This document shows positions 7,187 to 41,321 of a DNA stretch of 64,000 nt, in pieces; the first letter of the stretch is position 1; each line of letters opens with the position of its first letter. The stretch is taken from NCBI GenBank assembly GCA_036172265.1, contig JASFBA010000021.1:4158-68157 (forward strand), read 5' to 3'. Source of the DNA: Chloroflexia bacterium (GTDB lineage: Bacteria; Chloroflexota; Chloroflexia; DTKN01). Made by a program: the position numbers and the translations under genes. The notes beneath the pieces are model-generated. The model had not been told where the DNA came from. It saw only the letters and a list, made by a program, of their open reading frames with translations, and did no database searches.

Positions 7187-8306
7187 CGCCGACCGTCTCT
7201 GGCAAGCCTGCCCGGACTGCGGGCGACCGCTCCTGGCCCGTTACGACCTGGACGCGGCGCGGCGGTTGGGGCGGGATCGTCTGATCGGCCCGGAGCCCTC
7301 CCTCTGGCGCTACCGGGCCCTGCTACCGGTGCGGGATGAGGCCCATATCGTCACGCTGGGCGAAGGGTTCACCCCTCTGCTCCCCGCCCGACGGCTGGGC
7401 GCGGAACTGGGGATGCCCCACCTCTCCATCAAGGAGGAGAGCCTCAACCCGACCGCGTCTTTCAAGGCGCGCGGGCTGGCGGTGGCCGTCTCCCGGGCCC
7501 GGGAACTGGGGGTGCGGGAGATGGTCATCCCGTCAGCGGGGAACGCGGCGGGCGCGGCCGCCGCCTACGCCGCCCGCGCCGGCCTCCGCCTCCACGTCTT
7601 CATGCCCCGCGACGTTCCGGCCCCGTTCCGGGCCGAGTGTCGCGCCCTGGGCGCGGAGGTAACTCTGGTAGACGGCCTCATCACCGACTGTAGCCGGGAG
7701 GCCCGAAAGCAAGCGCAGGAGCACGGTTGGTTTGACCTCTCCACCCTGAAGGAGCCGTACCGGTTGGAGGGGAAAAAGACCATGGGGTACGAACTGGCCG
7801 AGCAGTTGGGCTGGAACCTGCCCGACGTCATCATCTACCCCACCGGCGGCGGAACCGGACTGGTGGGGATGTGGAAGGCGTTTGAGGAGATGGCCCAACT
7901 GGGCTGGATCGGAGAGCGTCGCCCGCGTATGGTGACGGTTCAGAGCGCGGGATGCGCGCCCATCGTGCGGGCATTCCACGCCGGAGAGGAGTTCGCCGCC
8001 CCATGGGAGGATGCCCAGACCGTCGCGGCCGGGCTGCGGGTCCCGGCGGCGATAGGGGATTTCCTCATCCTGCGGGTCCTGCGGGCCAGCGGCGGAACCG
8101 CCGTCGCCGTCCCCGACGAGGCGCTGTTGGAGGCCCAGAAGGGGATGGGCCGGACGGAGGGGGTCTTTGCCTGCCCCGAGGGCGGCGCGACGCTGGCCGC
8201 GCTGAAATTCCTGCTGGACGGGGGCTGGATAGACCCTACCGAACGGGTGGTCCTCTTCAACACCGGCAGCGGGCTGAAGTACCCCCTGCCCACCGGGGTC
8301 TGGTGA
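7134..8306 (+). CDS. thrC: Threonine synthase (PLP-dependent, with N-terminal Zn-ribbon)
   Basis: N-terminal CSLCGK...CPDCGRPL ribbon. PLP lysine motif SIKEESLNPTASFKARG. Glycine-rich loop YPTGGGTGLVGMW. Confidence 0.75.
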   Translation: MTTFLTHLECSLCGKTVDADRLWQACPDCGRPLLARYDLDAARRLGRDRLIGPEPSLWRYRALLPVRDEAHIVTLGEGFTPLLPARRLGAELGMPHLSIKEESLNPTASFKARGLAVAVSRARELGVREMVIPSAGNAAGAAAAYAARAGLRLHVFMPRDVPAPFRAECRALGAEVTLVDGLITDCSREARKQAQEHGWFDLSTLKEPYRLEGKKTMGYELAEQLGWNLPDVIIYPTGGGTGLVGMWKAFEEMAQLGWIGERRPRMVTVQSAGCAPIVRAFHAGEEFAAPWEDAQTVAAGLRVPAAIGDFLILRVLRASGGTAVAVPDEALLEAQKGMGRTEGVFACPEGGATLAALKFLLDGGWIDPTERVVLFNTGSGLKYPLPTGVW

Positions 8307-12527: not shown

Positions 12528-13934
12528 ATGGATGGAGACGAACTGCCCGTTGCCGAAGAGTTGCTGGGGTCGGTGGAAGCCGGTGGGGAGGCTCGGGAAC
12601 GGCCCGGCCCGTCCCGGCCTTCTTCCCTATCCCGAGATGCCCGGCCGCCCGTCCAGGCCGCCCTCTTCTTACCACGGCCGGTTCTGGCTTTGCTCCCCGT
12701 TCGGGCCTGGGTCATCCTTCTAGTGCCCTTCCTCTTTTTCCTCTTCCACCTTCCGGCCAGCCATCCACCCCTCCTCTGGGCCACATTGGGCCTGGCCCTG
12801 GCCTCCCTGCCGCTTTCCTATGCCTTGAGGCAGCGTAACCTTCTGGAGCACCGCCTGGTGCGGTGGGTTCTGCCGGCCCTGGACCTCCTCCTGGCCGCGC
12901 TCCTCGTCCTGGGCAGTTGCTCCTCCCGTAGCCCCTTTTTCCCCACCTTTTACCTCCCGATCGCCTACGCCGGCCTGCTGGAGGGTTACGCCGGCGGCCT
13001 GGGCCTGGGGCTGGTGATCTCCGGCTTCTACGGCCTCCTCTACGCCCTGGACTCCCACCCCGCCGAGCCGGTGCTGGCGCTGTCCTTGGCCCTCCTTTTC
13101 CCCTTGGCCGGCAGCATAAGCGGTTACCTGGGGCGTTCCTTCGCCCTTATGGGCCGGCGCAGCCAGGAGGTGCTCGAACAGGCCCGCCGGCTGTACCAAG
13201 AGGCCGAGGAGCGCCGTGCCCTCTATGAACGGTGGTATCGCGCCGTAGATCGCCTCAAGGCCGACTTTGTCTACTCCGCTTCCCACGAACTGCGCACGCC
13301 GCTGACGCCGGTCAAGGGTTATCTTCAACTCCTGCGCCACCCCGACTTTCCGATCCCGGAAGATAAGCGCCAGGACTATATGCAGATTATGGCCAACAAC
13401 GTGGACCTGCTGGCCCAACTGGTGGACGACATCCTCTACCTCCAGCGGATCACCCGCATCCCCATCGACCTGGAGAAATTCGCCATATCAGAGGTGGCCC
13501 GGCAGGCGGTGGAAGAGGTGGCCGGCGAGGCCGAGGAGAGCGAGGTCAGCATCCATCTGGACGATTGGGCCGGCCTGCCTCCTATCCTGGGAAGCAGCGA
13601 CAGCCTGAAACTGGTCCTTTCCAACCTGCTGGAGGCGGCCGTCCGCGATAGCCCGGCCGGGAGCGTGGTGCTCCTTTCCCTGCGGCCGGCCGGCGACGGT
13701 GTGGAGATTCGGGTGGCCGGGGCCGGCAAGGGCATCCCGGCCGAGCAACAGGAGCGTCTCTTCGACCTCTTCTTCCACGCCGACAGTTCGCCCACCTACG
13801 TCCTGGGGCGCGAGGGGTTGAGCCTGGCCGTAGTCCGCTACATCGTGGAAATGCATGGCGGCCGCGTCGCCGTAGAGAACCAACCTCGGGGAGGGATGGC
13901 TTTCATCGTCCATCTCCCCGGCCGGCCGGGATAG
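12528..13934 (+). CDS. Sensor histidine kinase (membrane, HisKA + HATPase_c)
   Basis: Multiple TM segments. H-box FVYSASHELRTPLTPVKGYLQLL. N/G boxes (LLEAAVRDSPAGSVV...AGAGKGIPAEQQERLFDLFFHAD). Confidence 0.8.
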   Translation: MDGDELPVAEELLGSVEAGGEARERPGPSRPSSLSRDARPPVQAALFLPRPVLALLPVRAWVILLVPFLFFLFHLPASHPPLLWATLGLALASLPLSYALRQRNLLEHRLVRWVLPALDLLLAALLVLGSCSSRSPFFPTFYLPIAYAGLLEGYAGGLGLGLVISGFYGLLYALDSHPAEPVLALSLALLFPLAGSISGYLGRSFALMGRRSQEVLEQARRLYQEAEERRALYERWYRAVDRLKADFVYSASHELRTPLTPVKGYLQLLRHPDFPIPEDKRQDYMQIMANNVDLLAQLVDDILYLQRITRIPIDLEKFAISEVARQAVEEVAGEAEESEVSIHLDDWAGLPPILGSSDSLKLVLSNLLEAAVRDSPAGSVVLLSLRPAGDGVEIRVAGAGKGIPAEQQERLFDLFFHADSSPTYVLGREGLSLAVVRYIVEMHGGRVAVENQPRGGMAFIVHLPGRPG

Positions 13935-34255: not shown

Positions 34256-34960
34256 GTGGAACGGTACCGTATCCTGATCGCCGACGATGACCCCGACATC
34301 CGTCGGGTATTGGAAGCCAGCCTGGAGGGCCTCGCCGGCGCCTCCTACGAGGTGACCTTTGCCCAGGACGGACTGGAGGCCGTCCGTCGTTTCCGGGAGG
34401 AACATTTTGACCTGGTCATCCTGGATGTCATCATGCCCTACATCGACGGCTTCACCGCCTGTCGCACCATCCGCCAGGAGTCGGATGTTCCCATCATCAT
34501 CCTGACCTGCCGGGACGGCCCCGAGGATCTCGTTCAGGGCTTCAGACTGGGGGCCGACGATTACGTGGTCAAGCCGTTCCGTATCAGCGAACTGACTGCC
34601 CGGGTGGAGGCCGTGTTGCGCCGGGCCGGCCGGCTGTCGTTCCGCCGCACCCAAGCCGCCCACGTCGGGGAACTTGAGGTCGATCCCCTCCGCCATCGGG
34701 CCACCATACGCGGCCAGGAAGTCCAGTTGACCCCGATGGAGTTTGAACTCCTCTATTTCCTGGCTTCTCACGCCGGGCAGGTCTTTGACCGGGCCACCCT
34801 CTTCCGCCAGGTCTGGGGACGGGAGTACGAATACGGCCGCGAGACCAACCTCATCGATGTCTGTGTGCGCCGTCTGCGGGAAAAGATCGAGCGCGATCCT
34901 TCTCATCCCGAATATCTTCGGACCGTCCGCGGGGTGGGCTATAAGATCGAGGCGCCCTAA
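34256..34960 (+). CDS. OmpR-family two-component response regulator
   Basis: REC domain (ILIADDDPD...DLVILDVIMPYIDG...KPF) plus winged-helix (LTPMEFELLYFLASHAGQVFDRATLFRQVWG...VRRLREKI). The ORF-track start 34166 overlaps clpX. GTG 34256 has a GGAGGAAGG SD; TTG 34241 is an alternative. Confidence 0.8.
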   Translation: MERYRILIADDDPDIRRVLEASLEGLAGASYEVTFAQDGLEAVRRFREEHFDLVILDVIMPYIDGFTACRTIRQESDVPIIILTCRDGPEDLVQGFRLGADDYVVKPFRISELTARVEAVLRRAGRLSFRRTQAAHVGELEVDPLRHRATIRGQEVQLTPMEFELLYFLASHAGQVFDRATLFRQVWGREYEYGRETNLIDVCVRRLREKIERDPSHPEYLRTVRGVGYKIEAP

Positions 34961-37900
34961 GTGTACGTCCGCCAACTCCACCTTCAGGGCTTCAAGACCT
35001 TTGCTACCCGGACATCCTTTTCCTTCGGCCGAGGCATCACCGCCATTGTGGGCCCGAACGGTTCCGGGAAGAGCAACCTGGCCGATGCTCTGCGCTGGGT
35101 GCTTGGCGAACAGAGTTACTCCACCTTGCGCAGCCGGCGTACCGAAGACGTGATCTTCAGCGGAAGTCCCTCCCGCCCTCCGGCGGGAATGGCCGAGGTG
35201 ACCCTCGTCCTCGATAACGAAGACGGCGCCCTCCCGATCGACTTCCCCGAAGTCGAGATCACTCGACGAGCCTATCGTTCCGGGGCAAACGAATATTTCC
35301 TCAACCGCCGCCGGGTGCGCCTGCAGGATATCGAGGAGGTGCTCGGCGGGTTGAGCGCTTCCTACGTCGTAATTCACCAGGGACTGGTGGACGAGGCCCT
35401 TTCCCTCCGCCCGAGGGAACGCCGATTGCTCCTGGAGGAAGCGGCCGAGGTGCGGCGTTACCACGAACGCCGCCAGAAAGCGCTGGAGCGCCTCCGCGAA
35501 ACCGCGGCCAACATGACCCGCCTTTCAGACCTGCGTAACGAACTCCTCCCCCGGCTACGGGCGCTGGAACGACAATCGCAGCAAGTCCGGCAACGGGCCG
35601 GACTTGAGGCTTCCCTGCAAGAGGCGCTGCGCACTTGGTATCGCCTTCTCTGGGAGGAAGTTTCCTCCGCCCTGCGCCAGGCCGAACGGGAGGAGGAAGA
35701 AGCCCGAAACCGCCTGGAACTCCTCCGCGCTTCGGCGGAAGAAGTCATCCGACAGATCGCCTCCCTGCGGCAGGCTGTCCAGGAAAGCCGGCAAAAGGAG
35801 GAGGAACGTCGCCGGAAAGAGGGGGAAATACGTCGGCGGATCGGGACATTGCGCGAGCGACTGGCCCGCGCCCTCGGGGAAAGCCAGGCCTTGGAGCGTC
35901 ACCGGGAGGAGTTGCGGGCAGAAGTCGCCCGTTACCGCCGGGAACTGGCCTTGCAAGAGGAGCGCCGGGCGTTCCTGGCCCAGGCCGGAAAGGCCCTGAA
36001 GGAACGGGTGCTGCAGGCCCAGGCCGGCCTCCAGAGACAACAGGAGCATTACCGGCAGGCCGAAACCGACCTCCGCTCCGTCCAACAGAACTTGCAAGCG
36101 CTTCAGGAACAGGAGCGCCGCCTGGAGCAACTTCGGGCCCGCGAAGAGGTGTTGGCACGGGAAGAGGCGGAGCGACGCCGCCTCCTGGAGGAATTGGCCG
36201 AGCAGAAGCGCCGATTGGAAGAGGAGAGGGCGCGCGCGATGGAGGAACAGGCCCGACGGGAGGAGGTTTGGACCTCCCTGTGTGCTCGCCGGAAGGCGCT
36301 ACAGGCTGAGGTGGAAAGCCGGCAGGAGGACCTTCGGAAACAGGATGAGGCGCAGGAATCGGCCCGCCTGCGTCTGGCCGACCTCCGTGCCCGACTTGAG
36401 ACCTTGGAGGAGGACGATGCCACCTCGTTCCTGGAAGAATGGGCCCGTCGGCAGGGCCGGCCGGCCTTCTCCACCCTCTTGGACCGCCTGACCGTCCCCC
36501 GGGGGCTGCGGAAAGCCCTTGCCGCCGCCCTCGGCGTCCACCTCCTACCCTTGCTTTTCTCCACTTGGGAGGAAGCCCGGGAGGCGCTTCGCGCCCTGGA
36601 AGGGGCCAAGACTGGCTCGGCCACCTTCCTTCCCCGAGATGAACTTCGCCCACCCCCTTCGGCCCTCTCCGGGTCCCCTGCCCTGGGCAGCGAGGGCCTG
36701 CTGCTCGATCACCTGACTTGCCCCCGGGAGGATCGGCCGGCCCTGGCCTGCCTTCTGGGCCGCGTCCTCCTGGCGCGTGACCTGGAGGCGGCCCGCCGTA
36801 TCGCCCGCGGCATCCCGGCCGGATGGCTGGTGGTAACCCGAGAGGGGGAAGCCGTCACCGCCGAGGGTGTCCTTTCCGGCGGAAAGCTGTGGGAAGATGC
36901 CCTGGAGCGCCGAGAAGAGCGCCGCCGGCTGGCCCGCGCCACGGCCGAGGTGGAAGTGCAGGTTGTGGAGGGAGAACGCAAACGGACCGAAACCCGAGAG
37001 CGGCTGGCCGCCGCTCAGGCGGCCCTGACCGCCCTGGCGACGGAGATGGAGGAGAAGCGCCTCGCCCGAGAGGAAGGCGCTCGACATCTCCTCGACCTGG
37101 ATCTGAGTCTGGAGCGTCTGGAGGAAGAAATCGGCCGGCAGAGCCTCCGTCTGGAAGAACTGTCCGGGGAAAGGGGCCGCCTTGAAGAGGAAATGCAGGC
37201 ATCCGCTCCAGGAGAGGCAAACCGCCGTCTGGTCCTTCAGGAGGAACTGGAGCAAGCCCGGGTGAGGGAAGAGCAGGCCCGGGAGGAATTCCTCCGGGCC
37301 CGCCGGTCCCTGGAGGAAGCCCGCCTGGTCTGGGCCGTGGCCCGGAAAGAGGAGGAGAACCAGCGCGCCCTGGAGGAAATGGTGCAGCAGGGCGTTCGAG
37401 GGCTTCAGAGGCAGGTGGAAAAGGGGGAGAAACGTCTGGAGGAGATAGGGCGTCGGTTGGAAGCGCAAGCGGCCCAGATCGCTTCCTGGGAGGCCGAACT
37501 GGCCGGCCTGGAGCAAGAGATAGCCGCGCTCGAGGAAGTTTCTGCTCCTCCTTCCCTACGGGAGTTGGAAGAGAAAGAAGCGGAGGAGGCCCGCTTACGG
37601 GAGGAGATTCTGGCCTGGGAAACGGCCGCCAGCCGGGCTGCCCTAGCCGTTCAGCGCTGGCGGGATGCCCGGCGGGAACTCCTCCAGCGTGCCCTTGCAG
37701 AGATCGGCCCCGAGGCCAGTGCCTACGGGCCGGCCGGCGAGGCCCTCCTGAACGCCCTCCTATCCTCTCCCCCGGAGTGGACCCGCCTGCCCCTCGACCC
37801 GAACCTGACCAGGGAGGAAGTGGAGCGACGGGTGGCCCACCTGCGCGAGGAGGTCCGTCGCATCGGCCCGGTCAACCCGCTGGCGGAAGAGGAATATCGG

Positions 37901-38527
37901 GAGACCCAAGAGCGCTACGATTTCCTCGGGCAACAACTCCAAGACCTACACGATGCCGCCCGCTCCCTGGAGCAGGTCGTTGCCGAACTGGACCGGGCGA
38001 TGGAGCAGCGCTTTCATGAGACGTTCGAAGCGGTGCAACGCGAGTTCCAGGCCTATTTCACCCGCCTCTTCGGAGGGGGAAGCGCCGCCCTGCGCCTGGT
38101 GCGCCTGGAGGAGGAAGACGGCGGGCTGAGCGGGCTGGGGGTGGAGATTACGGCCCGCCCTCCGGGGAAACGGGCCCACAGCCTGGCCCTCCTCTCTGGC
38201 GGGGAACGGGCGCTCACCTCGGCCGCCCTTCTCTTTGCCATCCTCAAGGTGAATCCCCGCCCCTTCTGCCTCCTGGACGAGGTGGACGCCATGCTGGACG
38301 AGGCCAACGTGGGACGCTTCCGGGAATGCCTGCTGGAACTGGCTTCCCGCACCCAGTTCATCCTCATCACTCACAACCGGGGCACCATCGAGGCCGCCGA
38401 CCTCCTTTACGGCGTCTCCATGGCCGATGACGGCACCTCGCGGGTCCTTTCGCTGCGGCTGGAGGAACAGGGGAGCCCGGGATCGCCCAAGGACGGTCAG
38501 GGCGCACCGGCGGTGCACCCTAACTGA
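34961..38527 (+). CDS. smc: Chromosome segregation protein SMC
   Basis: 1188 aa. N-terminal Walker [10 protein letters not shown], long coiled coils, hinge, C-terminal signature [36 protein letters not shown]. Confidence 0.95.
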
Positions 38528-38617
38528 CCCTCTGGGCCGGCCCTGGAGCAGAAAAAACACCGTACATCTTCCTTTGCCTATCTCGCCCGATGACCCTCCT
38601 ACCCCGAAGGCAGGAGA

Positions 38618-38885
38618 CCGGTGTCCCTCCCCCTGGATGGGGGAGGTCAGGAGGGGGTGAAGGGCCGCCGGCGTCGCTCTTCTCCATCAGGGGAGGGGGA
38701 CAAGGCGGGAACCCGGTGTCCCTCCCCCTGGATGGGGGAGGTCAGGGGGGTGAAGGGCCGCCGACGTCGCTCTTCTCCATCAGAGGAGGGGGACAAGGCG
38801 GGAACCCGGTGTCCCTCCCCCTGGATGGGGGAGGGCAGGGGGGAAGGGCCGCCGGCGTCGCTCTTCTCCATCAGGGGAGGGGGAC
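38618..38885. repeat. Tandem repeat, 2.9 copies of a 93-95 bp unit with internal C-rich/G-rich inverted repeats
   Basis: Copies start at 38618, 38713 and 38806, with >95% identity and a 2-nt indel between copies. Each unit contains CCCTCCCCC-tggat-GGGGGAGG. GGGAGGGGGA of one unit pairs with TCCCTCCCC of the next. Periods of 95 and 93 are not multiples of 3, so it is non-coding. Confidence 0.85.
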
Positions 38886-39164
38886 TTGATACCTATAGGG
38901 CGAAGTTACCCCGCCCCTACAAATTTGCCCATCCAGAAATACGCATCCCCCTGGCCCCCTGTCAGCATATCGGGCTTGACAAGTATAGTATAATGGAAGT
39001 GTAAACCTGGTCCGACTCCTTGCTGCTGAAATCCCGATCTCAACACTGTTCAAACAAGCGGGCGAAAGCCGGTCGAGGAGCGGGCTTGCCCCTGCGGGCC
39101 GAACTCGTGACCCGGCCCGTAGAGCCGTATCGAGACCGAGTGGGCGATTCTGTGGAGGTGCCCC

Positions 39165-39614
39165 ATGAAGCGCGCACGAACGTTGGGGATCGGAGTTTTT
39201 CTCATCCTGGGGCTGATCGGTCCGATGTCCCCTGTCCAAGGGGCCGAGATCCGATCCCCCCGACCGGCCGGACTGCTCCAGCCGCCAACCGCCGGCTTCC
39301 TTTCCAACAGTCCCATCTGCTTGGGCCAAACGGCCGTCTTCACCGACACGAGCAGCGGGGAGATCTTCTACCACGAATGGGATTTCGGCGATGGGGCCGT
39401 GGGCACAGGCTCCACGCCACGACACGGCTATTTCTGGCCGGGCACCTACACGGTAACCCTCACCGTGGGAGGCCCGGAGGGTAGCGATTCCTATGGCGAC
39501 ACCTTCGAGGTCCTGCCGGCCACCGAGGCCTTCTTCTGGGTCGAACCGTCGGAAGCCATCGTCGGCCGACCAGTGCACTTCCTGAACGTTTCCCAGGGGG
39601 CCACCGGCTACTAG
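39165..39614 (+). CDS. N-terminal fragment (signal peptide + PKD domain) of a secreted PKD/Big/metzincin-like protein, ended by an in-frame TAG
   Basis: Signal peptide MKRARTLGIGVFLILGLIGPMSPVQGA. PKD motif FYHEWDFGDGAVGTGSTPRHGYFWPGTYTVTLTV. A second PKD is cut at ...SQGATGY*. Confidence 0.6.
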   Translation: MKRARTLGIGVFLILGLIGPMSPVQGAEIRSPRPAGLLQPPTAGFLSNSPICLGQTAVFTDTSSGEIFYHEWDFGDGAVGTGSTPRHGYFWPGTYTVTLTVGGPEGSDSYGDTFEVLPATEAFFWVEPSEAIVGRPVHFLNVSQGATGY

Positions 39615-39620
39615 TGGGAC

Positions 39621-41321
39621 ATGGGCGACGGGACGCTGAGCACAGAGATCAGCCCGACCCACACCTACACCGAGGCCGGCGACTATGTCGTGCAACTGAC
39701 CGCCCTAGCCGCTGCCCCCTGCCAGAACTCGGTCTATACGACCACGCTCCACGTCCGCTACCGTACCTTCCTGAGCGTGGCCTACCGGGCGGCGGATCCG
39801 TCCGTCCCCTACCTGGAGGTGGAGACGCTGGCCGTGTCCTCCACCGGTCCGCACCAGGCCGACGGGCAGGATGTGGCCACCATCGTGGTCACGGCCACAG
39901 CAGCCGACGGAAGCCCGGTGCCCGGCCGGAATGTGGCGGTGGAACTGTATGCCGGGGAGGACCTTGGGGGCGCCTACCCGGCCACCGATAACGGCGACGG
40001 CACCTATACCGCCCAGGTCACCTCCACCGTGGCGGCCGACTTCCTGGTCTTGGCCGTCGAGTACGGCTCCCACCAGGTGGCCACCACCACCCTCTCCTTC
40101 CTGCCGGGGACACCCCAGACCATCGCCTGGGTCGAGGTGGTCCGGCCGGCCGACACAATCACTAAGGATACCGCCCTCCTGACGGCCGTGGTGGAGGATG
40201 CCTGGGGCAACCGGGTGCCGACCACGACTGCTCCCATTAGTTTCACCACCGACTTCGGTTCCCTGGTCTCATGGGAGGAGGAAGGCTATTACCACGCCCG
40301 CGTCCAAGCCACCGACTATGGGGTGGCCCATGTCCAGGCCGCCGGTTCGGTCGTTGGGCCCTCCCCGGCAATGACCGAGGCGGCTTTCTTGCCCCTTTAC
40401 CTCGAGTTCCGCACCATGCCGGGCGTGGGCGGGGAACTGGCCGTGGACGTGATCGTCTGGGCCCCCAAGGCCGACCTGGGGATGTACAACCTGGAACTGA
40501 CCTTTGATCCCCACGTCTTACACTTCAAAGGCATGCTGGACGGCGACCCGACCGATCCGTTCCCTGCCCCCTCTTACTCTATCTCTGGCACAAACACGAT
40601 CGTCTTCCACCAAATAAACTCTGGCGGAGAGCCCACCCCAGAGCGCATCCACCTTGCCACCAGCTTCTTCGACGTCTTCGTCGAGGCAGACCTGACCCCC
40701 CTTTCCCTACACCTGCTGAAAGACGATGTCCGCAGCCTGATGGATGTCTACGGCAACCCTCTGCTGCCCCAGGAACTCTACGACCTCCTGCAGCCCCGTT
40801 TGACCTGGTGGCTGCCCTTTTTCCTCAAATGGCCCAAACCGGTCTGCCTCAAGGTCTGGCTGGCGCCGGGAGCCACGCCGAACCTGGCCGGCCACACTTT
40901 GACGTTGAACGATATCTATTGGCGGAACGTGCCCCGATGCTGCCCCTGGTTCCTTTTCTTCCCGGTTACCAACACCATCAGACCCGTGGACTGGAATAAG
41001 ATCAACCAGGGTCCTCCGCAGTTGGATAGATCGGAGCGGGATGCCCTACGTGCCCGCTACAATCGTGCCCGCTGCATCAACGTCATTTATGCCCCGGACA
41101 ACTCTTTAGGAGGCACCGGCGTCACGATCCCAGGCGACGGCATCATCATAGACGGCGATGCGCTCGCCAACACCCTGGCCCACGAGGTCGGGCACTACTA
41201 CGGGCTGCGGGACCGATATGCAGCCGGGGCTGCAATTAACCTGATGTACGGATACGGCAACCCGGGCAAGTGGATCTTGACGCCGGCCCAGTGCGCCGTC
41301 ATCACCGCGAACGACCCATAG
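39621..41321 (+). CDS. C-terminal continuation of the same gene: PKD remainder, Big-like Ig domains, cohesin-like domain, and a C-terminal metzincin-like HEVGHYYGLRD zinc-peptidase domain
   Basis: Same frame as 39165..39614. The PKD motif continues across the TAG (ATGY*WDMGDGTLS...HTYTEAGDYVVQLTA). HExxHxxGxxD plus a Met-turn-like LMYGY near the C-terminus. Confidence 0.6.
   Translation: MGDGTLSTEISPTHTYTEAGDYVVQLTALAAAPCQNSVYTTTLHVRYRTFLSVAYRAADPSVPYLEVETLAVSSTGPHQADGQDVATIVVTATAADGSPVPGRNVAVELYAGEDLGGAYPATDNGDGTYTAQVTSTVAADFLVLAVEYGSHQVATTTLSFLPGTPQTIAWVEVVRPADTITKDTALLTAVVEDAWGNRVPTTTAPISFTTDFGSLVSWEEEGYYHARVQATDYGVAHVQAAGSVVGPSPAMTEAAFLPLYLEFRTMPGVGGELAVDVIVWAPKADLGMYNLELTFDPHVLHFKGMLDGDPTDPFPAPSYSISGTNTIVFHQINSGGEPTPERIHLATSFFDVFVEADLTPLSLHLLKDDVRSLMDVYGNPLLPQELYDLLQPRLTWWLPFFLKWPKPVCLKVWLAPGATPNLAGHTLTLNDIYWRNVPRCCPWFLFFPVTNTIRPVDWNKINQGPPQLDRSERDALRARYNRARCINVIYAPDNSLGGTGVTIPGDGIIIDGDALANTLAHEVGHYYGLRDRYAAGAAINLMYGYGNPGKWILTPAQCAVITANDP

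Follow-up and report, generated by a model that had tools for sequence, protein, structure and literature searches.

Downstream of smc in a Chloroflexia bacterium lies a tandem array of three units, each built around an intergenic element of a kind already described in Escherichia coli. The array stands in 64,000 nucleotides of contig JASFBA010000021.1 (assembly GCA_036172265.1, positions 4,158 to 68,157), the stretch that we analysed and call the window. At a probability of about 0.7, we regard the array as a short, recently formed and unstable minisatellite that arose by slippage at a known non-B-DNA element of the BoxC/PIT/TM kind (PIT, potential intrastrand triplex; TM, triplex motif). BoxC elements were reportedly described by Bachellier in the 1990s and PIT elements by Hoyne and Maher in 2000 and 2002. 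Because every copy is built around such an element, local unstable amplification is a likelier origin than a new regulatory RNA. An earlier sequence-only reading of the window had named a slippage-prone minisatellite among several options, and it is the one that fits best. That reading had not noticed that the G-rich blocks of the unit are arranged as a mirror repeat, or that the core of the unit is a described intrastrand-triplex element.

The three-copy array is real and well above chance. Tandem Repeats Finder places it at 38607-38885, with a period of 93 nt, 3.0 copies, 93% matches, 2% indels and a score of 484, which no other array in the window approaches. The copies lie head-to-tail on the + strand as unit 1 (38607-38701, 95 nt), unit 2 (38702-38794, 93 nt) and unit 3 (38795-38885, 91 nt), and are 93-97% identical to one another. 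The start-to-start distances are 95 and then 93 nt, as the sequence-only reading had said; its array was the right one, begun 11 nt late, at 38618. The smc gene (34961-38527, +; Pfam SMC_N 1e-64, SMC_hinge 1.4e-18) has its stop at 38527, which puts the start of the array 80 nt downstream. The next gene, a PKD/Big_1 gene (the PKD gene below), starts at 39165 on the same strand.

Could the array be part of a protein? The unit lengths break the reading frame, Pfam returned zero families for the open reading frames (ORFs) that overlap the array (38590-38889, 38621-39004 and 38647-38871), and the codon-position GC of a 99-aa ORF over the array (0.75/0.67/0.71) is unlike that of a genuine gene (0.79/0.46/0.76 in smc). 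A coding repeat is excluded on these three grounds, and the array is therefore non-coding, as had been supposed. A CRISPR array, which had been discounted earlier, is excluded as well: the full 93-nt period repeats at 93-97% identity, and unique spacers are absent. Within the array we found no intrinsic terminator and no sigma-70 promoter. Its flanks hold no decayed extra copies and no terminal repeats, scores there being at the null level, and we found no further copy of the unit elsewhere in the window.

The structure of the unit is most easily seen if its frame is rotated to start at 38672. It then reads as a hairpin, CTCTTCTCC-ATCA-GGGGAGGGGG; a spacer of 18-20 nt; a second hairpin, CCCTCCCCC-TGGAT-GGGGGAGG; a G-block 3 nt past that hairpin (GGAGGGGG in unit 1, with TGA after it); and a GC-rich spacer of 18 nt, GGGCCGCCGGCGTCG. 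The unit is a head-to-head pair, with the first hairpin as partner of a three-block module, CCCTCCCCC-TGGAT-GGGGGAGG-TCA-GGAGGGGG, whose order is pyrimidine arm, purine arm, mirror-image purine block. In unit 1 the third block is the exact mirror of the purine arm; it is neither a direct nor an inverted copy of it. A hairpin with a TGGAT loop had been claimed for each unit, and CCCTCCCCC-TGGAT-GGGGGAGG(G) does occur three times: with up to 3 mismatches allowed, the 24-mer GTCCCTCCCCCTGGATGGGGGAGG matches three times, whereas 100 shuffles predict 0.00 matches. The partner hairpin lies at 38677-38699 in unit 1 and at 38770-38792 and 38861-38883 in the others, all on the + strand. For the G-blocks there are other pairing partners as well, the C-block of their own unit or that of the one after it (GGGGAGGG with CCCTCCCC of neighbours), and the predicted + strand RNA folds alternate between two separate hairpins and one long hairpin that joins the partner hairpin with the TGGAT hairpin. 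The mutually exclusive pairings between units that had been proposed are thus present.

Class II purine-motif intrastrand triplexes, to which the BoxC/PIT/TM(ECO) elements belong (Holder et al. 2015, PMC4666352), are designed in just this way, as a hairpin with the mirror image of its purine arm behind it. The ITxF criteria of that study are a stem of 6-15 triads, a single mismatch allowed only above 7, and loops of 1-6 nt, with stems of at least 8 being above chance (PMC4666352). In our own re-implementation of the search (stem at least 8, at most one mismatch, loops 1-6), the 64-kb window yields one motif, that of unit 1 at 38625-38657 (+), and 30 shuffles yield 0. Its pyrimidine arm CCCTCCCCC (38625-38633) and the loop TGGAT are followed by the purine arm GGGGGAGG (38639-38646), the linker TCA and the reverse-Hoogsteen block GGAGGGGG (38650-38657). 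This is the class II order of pyrimidine arm, loop, purine arm, loop and reverse-Hoogsteen arm. The stem has 9 triads with one mismatch, or 8 perfect ones, and the loops are 5 and 1-3 nt long; the third arm runs antiparallel to the purine arm in mirror register, as class II demands. The position of the array between smc and the PKD gene agrees with the intergenic placement of class II elements.

The link to this class came from a likeness to E. coli BoxC, tested by BLAST and followed through the literature on boxC to Holder et al. 2015; searching the literature for the motif by its letters gave only eukaryotic or irrelevant papers. The elements were named BoxC first, then PIT by Hoyne and Maher, then TM or TMECO by Holder et al. 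(PMC4666352). Strain MG1655 has 23 TMECO copies, all intergenic, with no strand bias, five inverted pairs and no link to gene function (PMC4666352). As a single strand, TMECO forms a very stable triplex by circular dichroism and nuclear magnetic resonance (NMR); triplex motifs block DNA polymerase in vitro; RNA does not form purine-motif triplexes; and TM sites are far more variable between strains than control spacers (all PMC4666352).

The array shares with these elements the layout on one strand: a pyrimidine arm, a loop of 3-6 nt, a purine arm, a linker of about 3 nt and a mirror purine block. Its pyrimidine arm CCCTCCCCC fits the TMECO arm CCCTCNCCC, and the purine arm of unit 3, GGGGGAGGG, fits GGGNGAGGG. 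The family to which its core belongs, described below, has the same G/C-rich stems of 8-9 nt, intergenic position, unbiased strand, inverted pairs and variable sites. There are also differences. The third block GGAGGGGG gives one A.A-T triad, whereas GGGNGAGGG of TMECO gives two. The host is a Chloroflexia metagenome-assembled genome (MAG), whereas TMECO is known from 262 proteobacterial genomes (PMC4666352). And here the element, together with its partner hairpin, has been amplified directly in tandem, with the third block lost in two of the three copies. Judged by its blocks, the array is a sister subtype of TMECO with a single A-T triad, the same kind of element but not TMECO itself.

How widespread is the core? 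The pattern GTCCCTCCCCC-N5-GGGGGAGG occurs at at least 120 loci in species-representative genomes (one genome per species), and the exact 22-mer with the TGGAT loop at at least 120 metagenome loci. Among the matches listed, to which the family counts below also refer, the hosts are mostly Hyphomicrobiales, with other Alpha-, Beta-, Gamma- and Deltaproteobacteria, Chloroflexota (Anaerolineae, Caldilineaceae), Nitrospirota, Acidobacteriota, Gemmatimonadota, Dormibacterota, Binatia, an anammox planctomycete and others. The consensus of 115 copies, all turned to the canonical orientation, is CCCTCCCCC(C) - TTGN(T) - GGGGGAGG(G) - 2-3 nt - (A)GG(G)[A/T]GGGGG - T(G/A)A, and the array units fit it down to the trailing TGA. 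The family includes a two-A, TMECO-type subtype. An element of this subtype from locus L016, with arms CCCTCTCCC / GGGAGAGGG / GGGTGAGGG, has BLAST matches of about 93% identity in 5205 of 5426 complete E. coli genomes, at a median of 3 places per genome; one E. coli example, CCCCTCTCCCCTTGCGGGAGAGGGTTAGGGTGAGGGG, lies between nrdA and nrdB. By sequence comparison, then, the core of the array is shared with a multi-phylum family that includes E. coli.

The third block follows the rules of a triplex throughout this family. We scored the block after GGGGGAGG-armed hairpins against the purine arm: the mirror register gives 8/8 triads in 118 cases among the genome loci and 110 among the metagenome loci, against only 5 and 8 for the direct register, counts that are inflated by common descent and clear in direction. 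The base that interrupts the G-run of the third block is A in 37 and T in 43 of 80 parsed cases, and never C (a looser pattern admits one C). A purine-motif triplex allows just these two bases, A and T, to face an A-T pair. The count of Gs between the interrupting base and the linker co-varies with the number of Gs past the A of the purine arm.

Family members are intergenic in 84 of 115 cases, while about 78% of the DNA is called coding, by a crude GC3-based gene caller that reproduced the genes around smc. Where both neighbours are called, co-directional genes flank 28 members in sense and 27 in antisense orientation, 11 members lie between convergent genes and 0 between divergent ones, so that the family lacks a strand preference and avoids promoter regions. 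This placement resembles that of REP-like (repetitive extragenic palindromic) DNA elements, not that of strand-specific RNA.

Inverted pairs, both head-to-head and tail-to-tail, are common in the family. Head-to-head pairs with an upstream hairpin CCCCTCCC-loop-GGGGAGGGG occur in Chloroflexota, Anaerolineales, Caldilineaceae, a deltaproteobacterium and lake metagenomes, and the array unit aligns with them part by part. Its partner hairpin aligns with CCCCTCCC-acca-GGGGAGGGGG of contig L036, with equivalents in L077, L028, L038 and L200; it is the family hairpin apart from three C-to-T changes, all on the C arm. The core also recurs in direct tandem in a few other short arrays: 3.5 copies of 71 nt in L026 (13-262) and 2.8 of 75 nt in L089 (4795-5004), two contigs of a single Terriglobales MAG, 3.2 of 42 nt in L182 (77-212) and 2.6 of 152 nt in L192 (696-1089). 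The units of the Terriglobales arrays have GGCCGCC..GGC and GTCGCT segments in common with the smc-array unit, in a different order.

Several observations weigh against our interpretation. An intact third block is retained by unit 1 only. In unit 2 the motif (38720-38750, +) keeps the hairpin CCCTCCCCC-TGGAT-GGGGGAGG, and its third block is AGGGGGG after a 2-nt deletion; in unit 3 (38813-38843, +) a 9-bp hairpin, CCCTCCCCC-TGGAT-GGGGGAGGG, is followed by GGGGGG only. In both third blocks the A is lost and 2-4 nt are missing, which leaves 7-nt stems with one mismatch or 6 perfect triads, the chance level according to Holder et al. (PMC4666352). The literal TMECO pattern (CCCTCNCCC N3-6 GGGNGAGGG N3 GGGNGAGGG) has no full match in the window, because the third block GGAGGGGG has one A where GGGNGAGGG of TMECO has two; the pyrimidine-purine part matches unit 3 only, at 38813. 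The TMECO triplex itself went undetected in vivo by dimethyl sulfate probing (PMC4666352). A second copy of the element is absent from the 64-kb window and from about 90 kb of six relatives, and its dispersal in this genome would be conjecture; four contigs of the metagenome assembly FWPU01 (L177, L203, L210, L212) carry the exact 22-mer, and the contig of one relative, L122, is also in FWPU01. Finally, the pairing of the partner hairpin needs G-U wobbles, which are available to + strand RNA only and hint at a constraint at the RNA level.

That last point belongs to a different account, in which the array is a functional, structured + strand RNA: stem-loops in the 3' untranslated region (UTR) of smc that act as a terminator or exonuclease block in the manner of REP sequences or BIMEs (bacterial interspersed mosaic elements), or a multi-hairpin small RNA (sRNA) or protein sponge. 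The sequence-only reading had proposed structured sRNA units or protein-binding sites. The partner hairpin, CUCUUCUCC/GGGGAGGGG, still pairs through three G-U pairs, and all of its changes relative to the related arm CCCCTCCC are on the C arm; three C-to-T changes are, however, too few to count as a sign of selection. The + strand does fold better, at -53.1 and -55.9 kcal/mol per unit against -38.6 and -43.6 for the - strand, which is weaker because that hairpin relies on its three G-U pairs. The z-scores are modest overall (-1.0 to -3.3; -2.1 and -3.3 for the + strand), since any composition of C-blocks and G-blocks folds well. Both smc and the PKD gene lie on the + strand, and no other terminator-like site was found after smc. 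The hairpin loops read UGGAU and so present GGA in a loop; across the family loop sequences vary and GGA is not conserved, which excludes a sponge of the CsrA type. Rfam 15 was scanned with the locus at a cut-off of E<=10 and with eight related loci at one of E<=0.1; only sub-threshold chance hits to eukaryotic microRNA hairpins were returned, so that the check proposed earlier produced no match. Published tests found no promoter or terminator activity for PIT/BoxC (Hoyne and Maher, cited in PMC4666352). The closest relatives lack the array, among them the syntenic contig L121, in which smc runs straight into a promoter-like box. A selected RNA role is disfavoured by that absence together with the 28 sense and 27 antisense members of the family, and we consider it unlikely.

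The G-rich strand might instead act as a G-quadruplex, with the C-rich strand as an i-motif, in competition with the hairpin, and so form a switch that affects transcription or replication. The array is locally G-skewed (+0.19 to +0.29), and family members of the form GGGGGAGGG-AC-AGGGAGGGGG have four G-runs with short loops. We looked for the canonical pattern, four runs of at least 3 G spaced 1-7 nt apart. It occurs in unit 3 only, at 38827-38848, whereas units 1 and 2 lack four such runs; the quadruplex potential suggested earlier holds for that one unit and is not a property that the units share. The common subfamily GGGGGAGG-NN-AGGWGGGGG has G2 tracts and keeps the mirror register, and by NMR the TMECO oligonucleotides are triplexes and not quadruplexes (PMC4666352). 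On this evidence a quadruplex switch is very improbable. The array does resemble H-DNA mirror repeats and hairpin/quadruplex switches in that its purine arm, linker and third block together read as a mirror repeat of purines and unit 3 fits a quadruplex pattern. It differs from H-DNA in that the strand with the mirror repeat also supplies the complementary pyrimidine arm, so that the expected triplex is an intrastrand one, and the quadruplex potential is not common to the units.

Is the element mobile? A non-autonomous element of the MITE (miniature inverted-repeat transposable element) or REPIN (REP doublet forming hairpins) type, moved by a transposase in trans and then duplicated, would explain the identity of the cores by horizontal spread. 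Near-identical cores do occur in many phyla, in AT-rich and in GC-rich flanks alike, and the inverted pairs resemble REPIN doublets. On one set of lake metagenome contigs (Ga0194xxx), at least 25 near-identical dispersed copies of a composite of about 120 nt were seen (for example in L154, L158, L168, L171, L198, L200, L207 and L208). In the composite, a C-block and the hairpin CCCCCTCCC-gcca-GGGGAGGGG are separated by a 22-nt spacer from a triplex motif whose loop is TGGAT, and the tail is TGTTAATAACTTG; from its copies it looks like an actively spreading element. The motif also occurs on 24 viral or prophage contigs, six copies standing on one of them (L145/L146, IMGVR_UViG_3300037478_000874). 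At our locus, a stretch of about 445 nt that includes the array is an insertion relative to L121.

Other evidence speaks against mobility. Neither a transposase nor a target-site duplication was identified, and no search of the neighbouring genes for a transposase was made. The flanks lack terminal repeats and extra copies, as noted above. The complete 93-nt unit was found nowhere else that we searched, neither in the window outside the array nor in plasmids, and the signature of its first hairpin was not found in the JGI metagenomes. For TMECO, Holder et al. found no association with phages or mobile elements (PMC4666352). We consider a mobile origin of the unit unlikely. A broader possibility, which we would call speculative, is that the CCCTCCCCC / GGGGGAGGG / GGGWGGGGG element is an unrecognised non-autonomous mobile or otherwise actively maintained one that crosses phyla, with tandem arrays such as those in L026, L089, L182 and L192 as its regular mode of amplification. 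In that case the array here might also be retained for the RNA structure that its + strand would form in the smc 3' UTR, given that its partner hairpin survives through G-U pairs only.

Like the REP, BIME and REPIN elements, the family consists of short GC-rich intergenic palindromes that occur singly, in inverted doublets and in clusters and are not found in divergent promoter regions, and stable 3' stem-loops are expected of the array as RNA. Unlike them, it has no known partner of the RAYT (REP-associated tyrosine transposase) type, no search aimed at RAYT having been made; its core is near-identical across phyla, whereas REPs are species-specific; its element adds a third, mirror domain; and the unit stands at one locus in the DNA examined. 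The sequence-only reading would have been undercut if the units were ubiquitous REP elements. The core is indeed ubiquitous across bacteria; the complete unit turned up nowhere else that we searched. The letters CGTC stand at 38672-38675, 1 nt ahead of the partner hairpin, and many Hyphomicrobiales members read gCGTC-CCCTCCCCCC. In the GTAG/CGTC superfamilies of REPs, GTAG or CGTC stands at one end of the palindrome, and the GTAG REPs go with a RAYT transposase (Di Nocera 2013). Neither CCTCCCC nor GGGGAGG occurs in Di Nocera 2013, and the motif is missing from REP surveys.

The reading that we prefer is an unstable minisatellite, and the locus in related genomes supports the instability that it implies. 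The SMC protein of the window is 100% identical to one NCBI MAG protein (P0001); the nearest relatives, labelled Chloroflexia bacterium, are 78-85% identical, and we compared six of their contigs (L121-L126). In L121 (SMC 85% identical) the same PKD gene lies downstream, the smc stop falls inside the TTGACA of a conserved promoter-like box, and homology with the window resumes only at 38973. About 445 nt of intergenic DNA (38528-38972), the array included, therefore has no counterpart in this closest syntenic relative. The array is absent from L121-L125. Synteny ends right past smc in four of the six relatives (L122-L125), and the contig of L126 ends before a judgement is possible. In L126 (SMC 78% identical) this spot is taken by another, single element of the type. 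Taken together, the differences among L121-L126 mark the spacer after smc as a hypervariable site in this lineage.

Two details of these contigs may be added. Right after smc in L126, at about 8170-8250, there is a single hairpin, CCCCCTCCCCTC - 21 nt - GAGGGGAGGGGG, followed by CAT-GGGGTGGGG; it is of the triplex type with an over-long first loop, and the CCCCACCCC upstream of it is complementary to the third block. In L123 (SMC 84% identical), smc is followed directly by an N-gap, at 13596-13695, with a duplicated 55-nt stretch on its flanks.

The same region gives some reason to ask whether the array, or its copy number, is an artefact of metagenome assembly. The scaffold of L123 has its N-gap at the same place, and in the Logan assembly SRR24425660, from a population 99.9% identical, the contigs end at 34562 and restart at 38910, 25 nt past the array, which they leave uncrossed. 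Yet the copies differ from one another by substitutions and two indels, unlike what a collapsed or duplicated block of identical sequence would show; comparable three-copy arrays stand in unrelated assemblies; and the flanks join conserved genes cleanly. We regard an artefact as extremely improbable.

How, then, might the array have formed? It has the marks of a minisatellite, or variable number tandem repeat: three head-to-tail copies of 91-95 nt, 93-97% alike, that differ by homopolymer lengths, and relatives that lack it. It departs from an ordinary one in that its unit is built from a dispersed family of structure-forming elements and not from arbitrary sequence. One palindromic element pair in the variable spacer after smc would have been the starting point. 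Replication slippage, or unequal recombination between the repeated G/C blocks, may then have multiplied the pair in tandem. Stalling at very stable structures on transiently single-stranded DNA could have favoured this amplification: the G-rich (+) single strand would fold into the hairpin, with the third block joining its purine arm in G.G-C and A/T.A-T triads. Every length difference among the aligned units lies within the G-runs of the third block, and later losses of 2 and 4 nt there, presumably by homopolymer slippage, would give units of 95, 93 and 91 nt. If co-transcribed with smc, the array would add very stable stem-loops at the 3' end, as REP elements do; probably it has no dedicated function, and none is required to account for it. 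The GC skew of the window is too weak and inconsistent to assign a replication strand.

These findings bear on both the locus and the element. Because the repeat falls in a known class, there is no need to pursue a new regulatory RNA or a CRISPR-like system here. The single-A triplex subtype appears to reach far beyond the Proteobacteria, into Chloroflexota, Acidobacteriota, Nitrospirota and others, and its third block obeys the mirror rule of a triplex across hundreds of copies. Amplification of BoxC/PIT/TM elements can yield short arrays in direct tandem. The site is what the literature predicts: the spacer is hypervariable, synteny breaks at it, and the motif has decayed in what would be the newer copies. 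It lends further circumstantial support, not proof, to a link between triplex motifs and local genome instability.

The DNA that follows the array is of a different kind. A promoter-like box, TTGACA - 7 nt - TATAAT (38976-38994, +), is not part of the repeat; the same box occurs in L121 and L126, and on its 3' side the inserted DNA reaches no further than this box. A sigma-70 consensus scan did not call it in the window, and the version in L126 has the canonical 17-nt spacing. The box is followed by GAAGTGTAAA (window 38976-39005; L121 13596-13630; L126 about 8265-8300) and by a leader of about 170 nt before the PKD gene, in which Rfam found no match. The PKD gene (39165-41321, +) has an in-frame TAG at 39612-39614 (GY*WD) where L121 has CAG, for Gln (GYQWD), within a single gene of 719 aa. 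The TAG is also present in the 99.9%-identical Logan contig L153 and so is not an assembly error; the gene would be either a pseudogene or the site of a read-through.

Two weaker repeats were seen elsewhere in the window. At 1911-2020 lies a short-period tandem repeat with periods of 7, 21 and 35, made of GTCCGTC and its derivatives in up to 15.6 copies, and the 3' part of smc contains an imperfect 36-nt duplication (38163-38234, 1.9 copies, 78% match).

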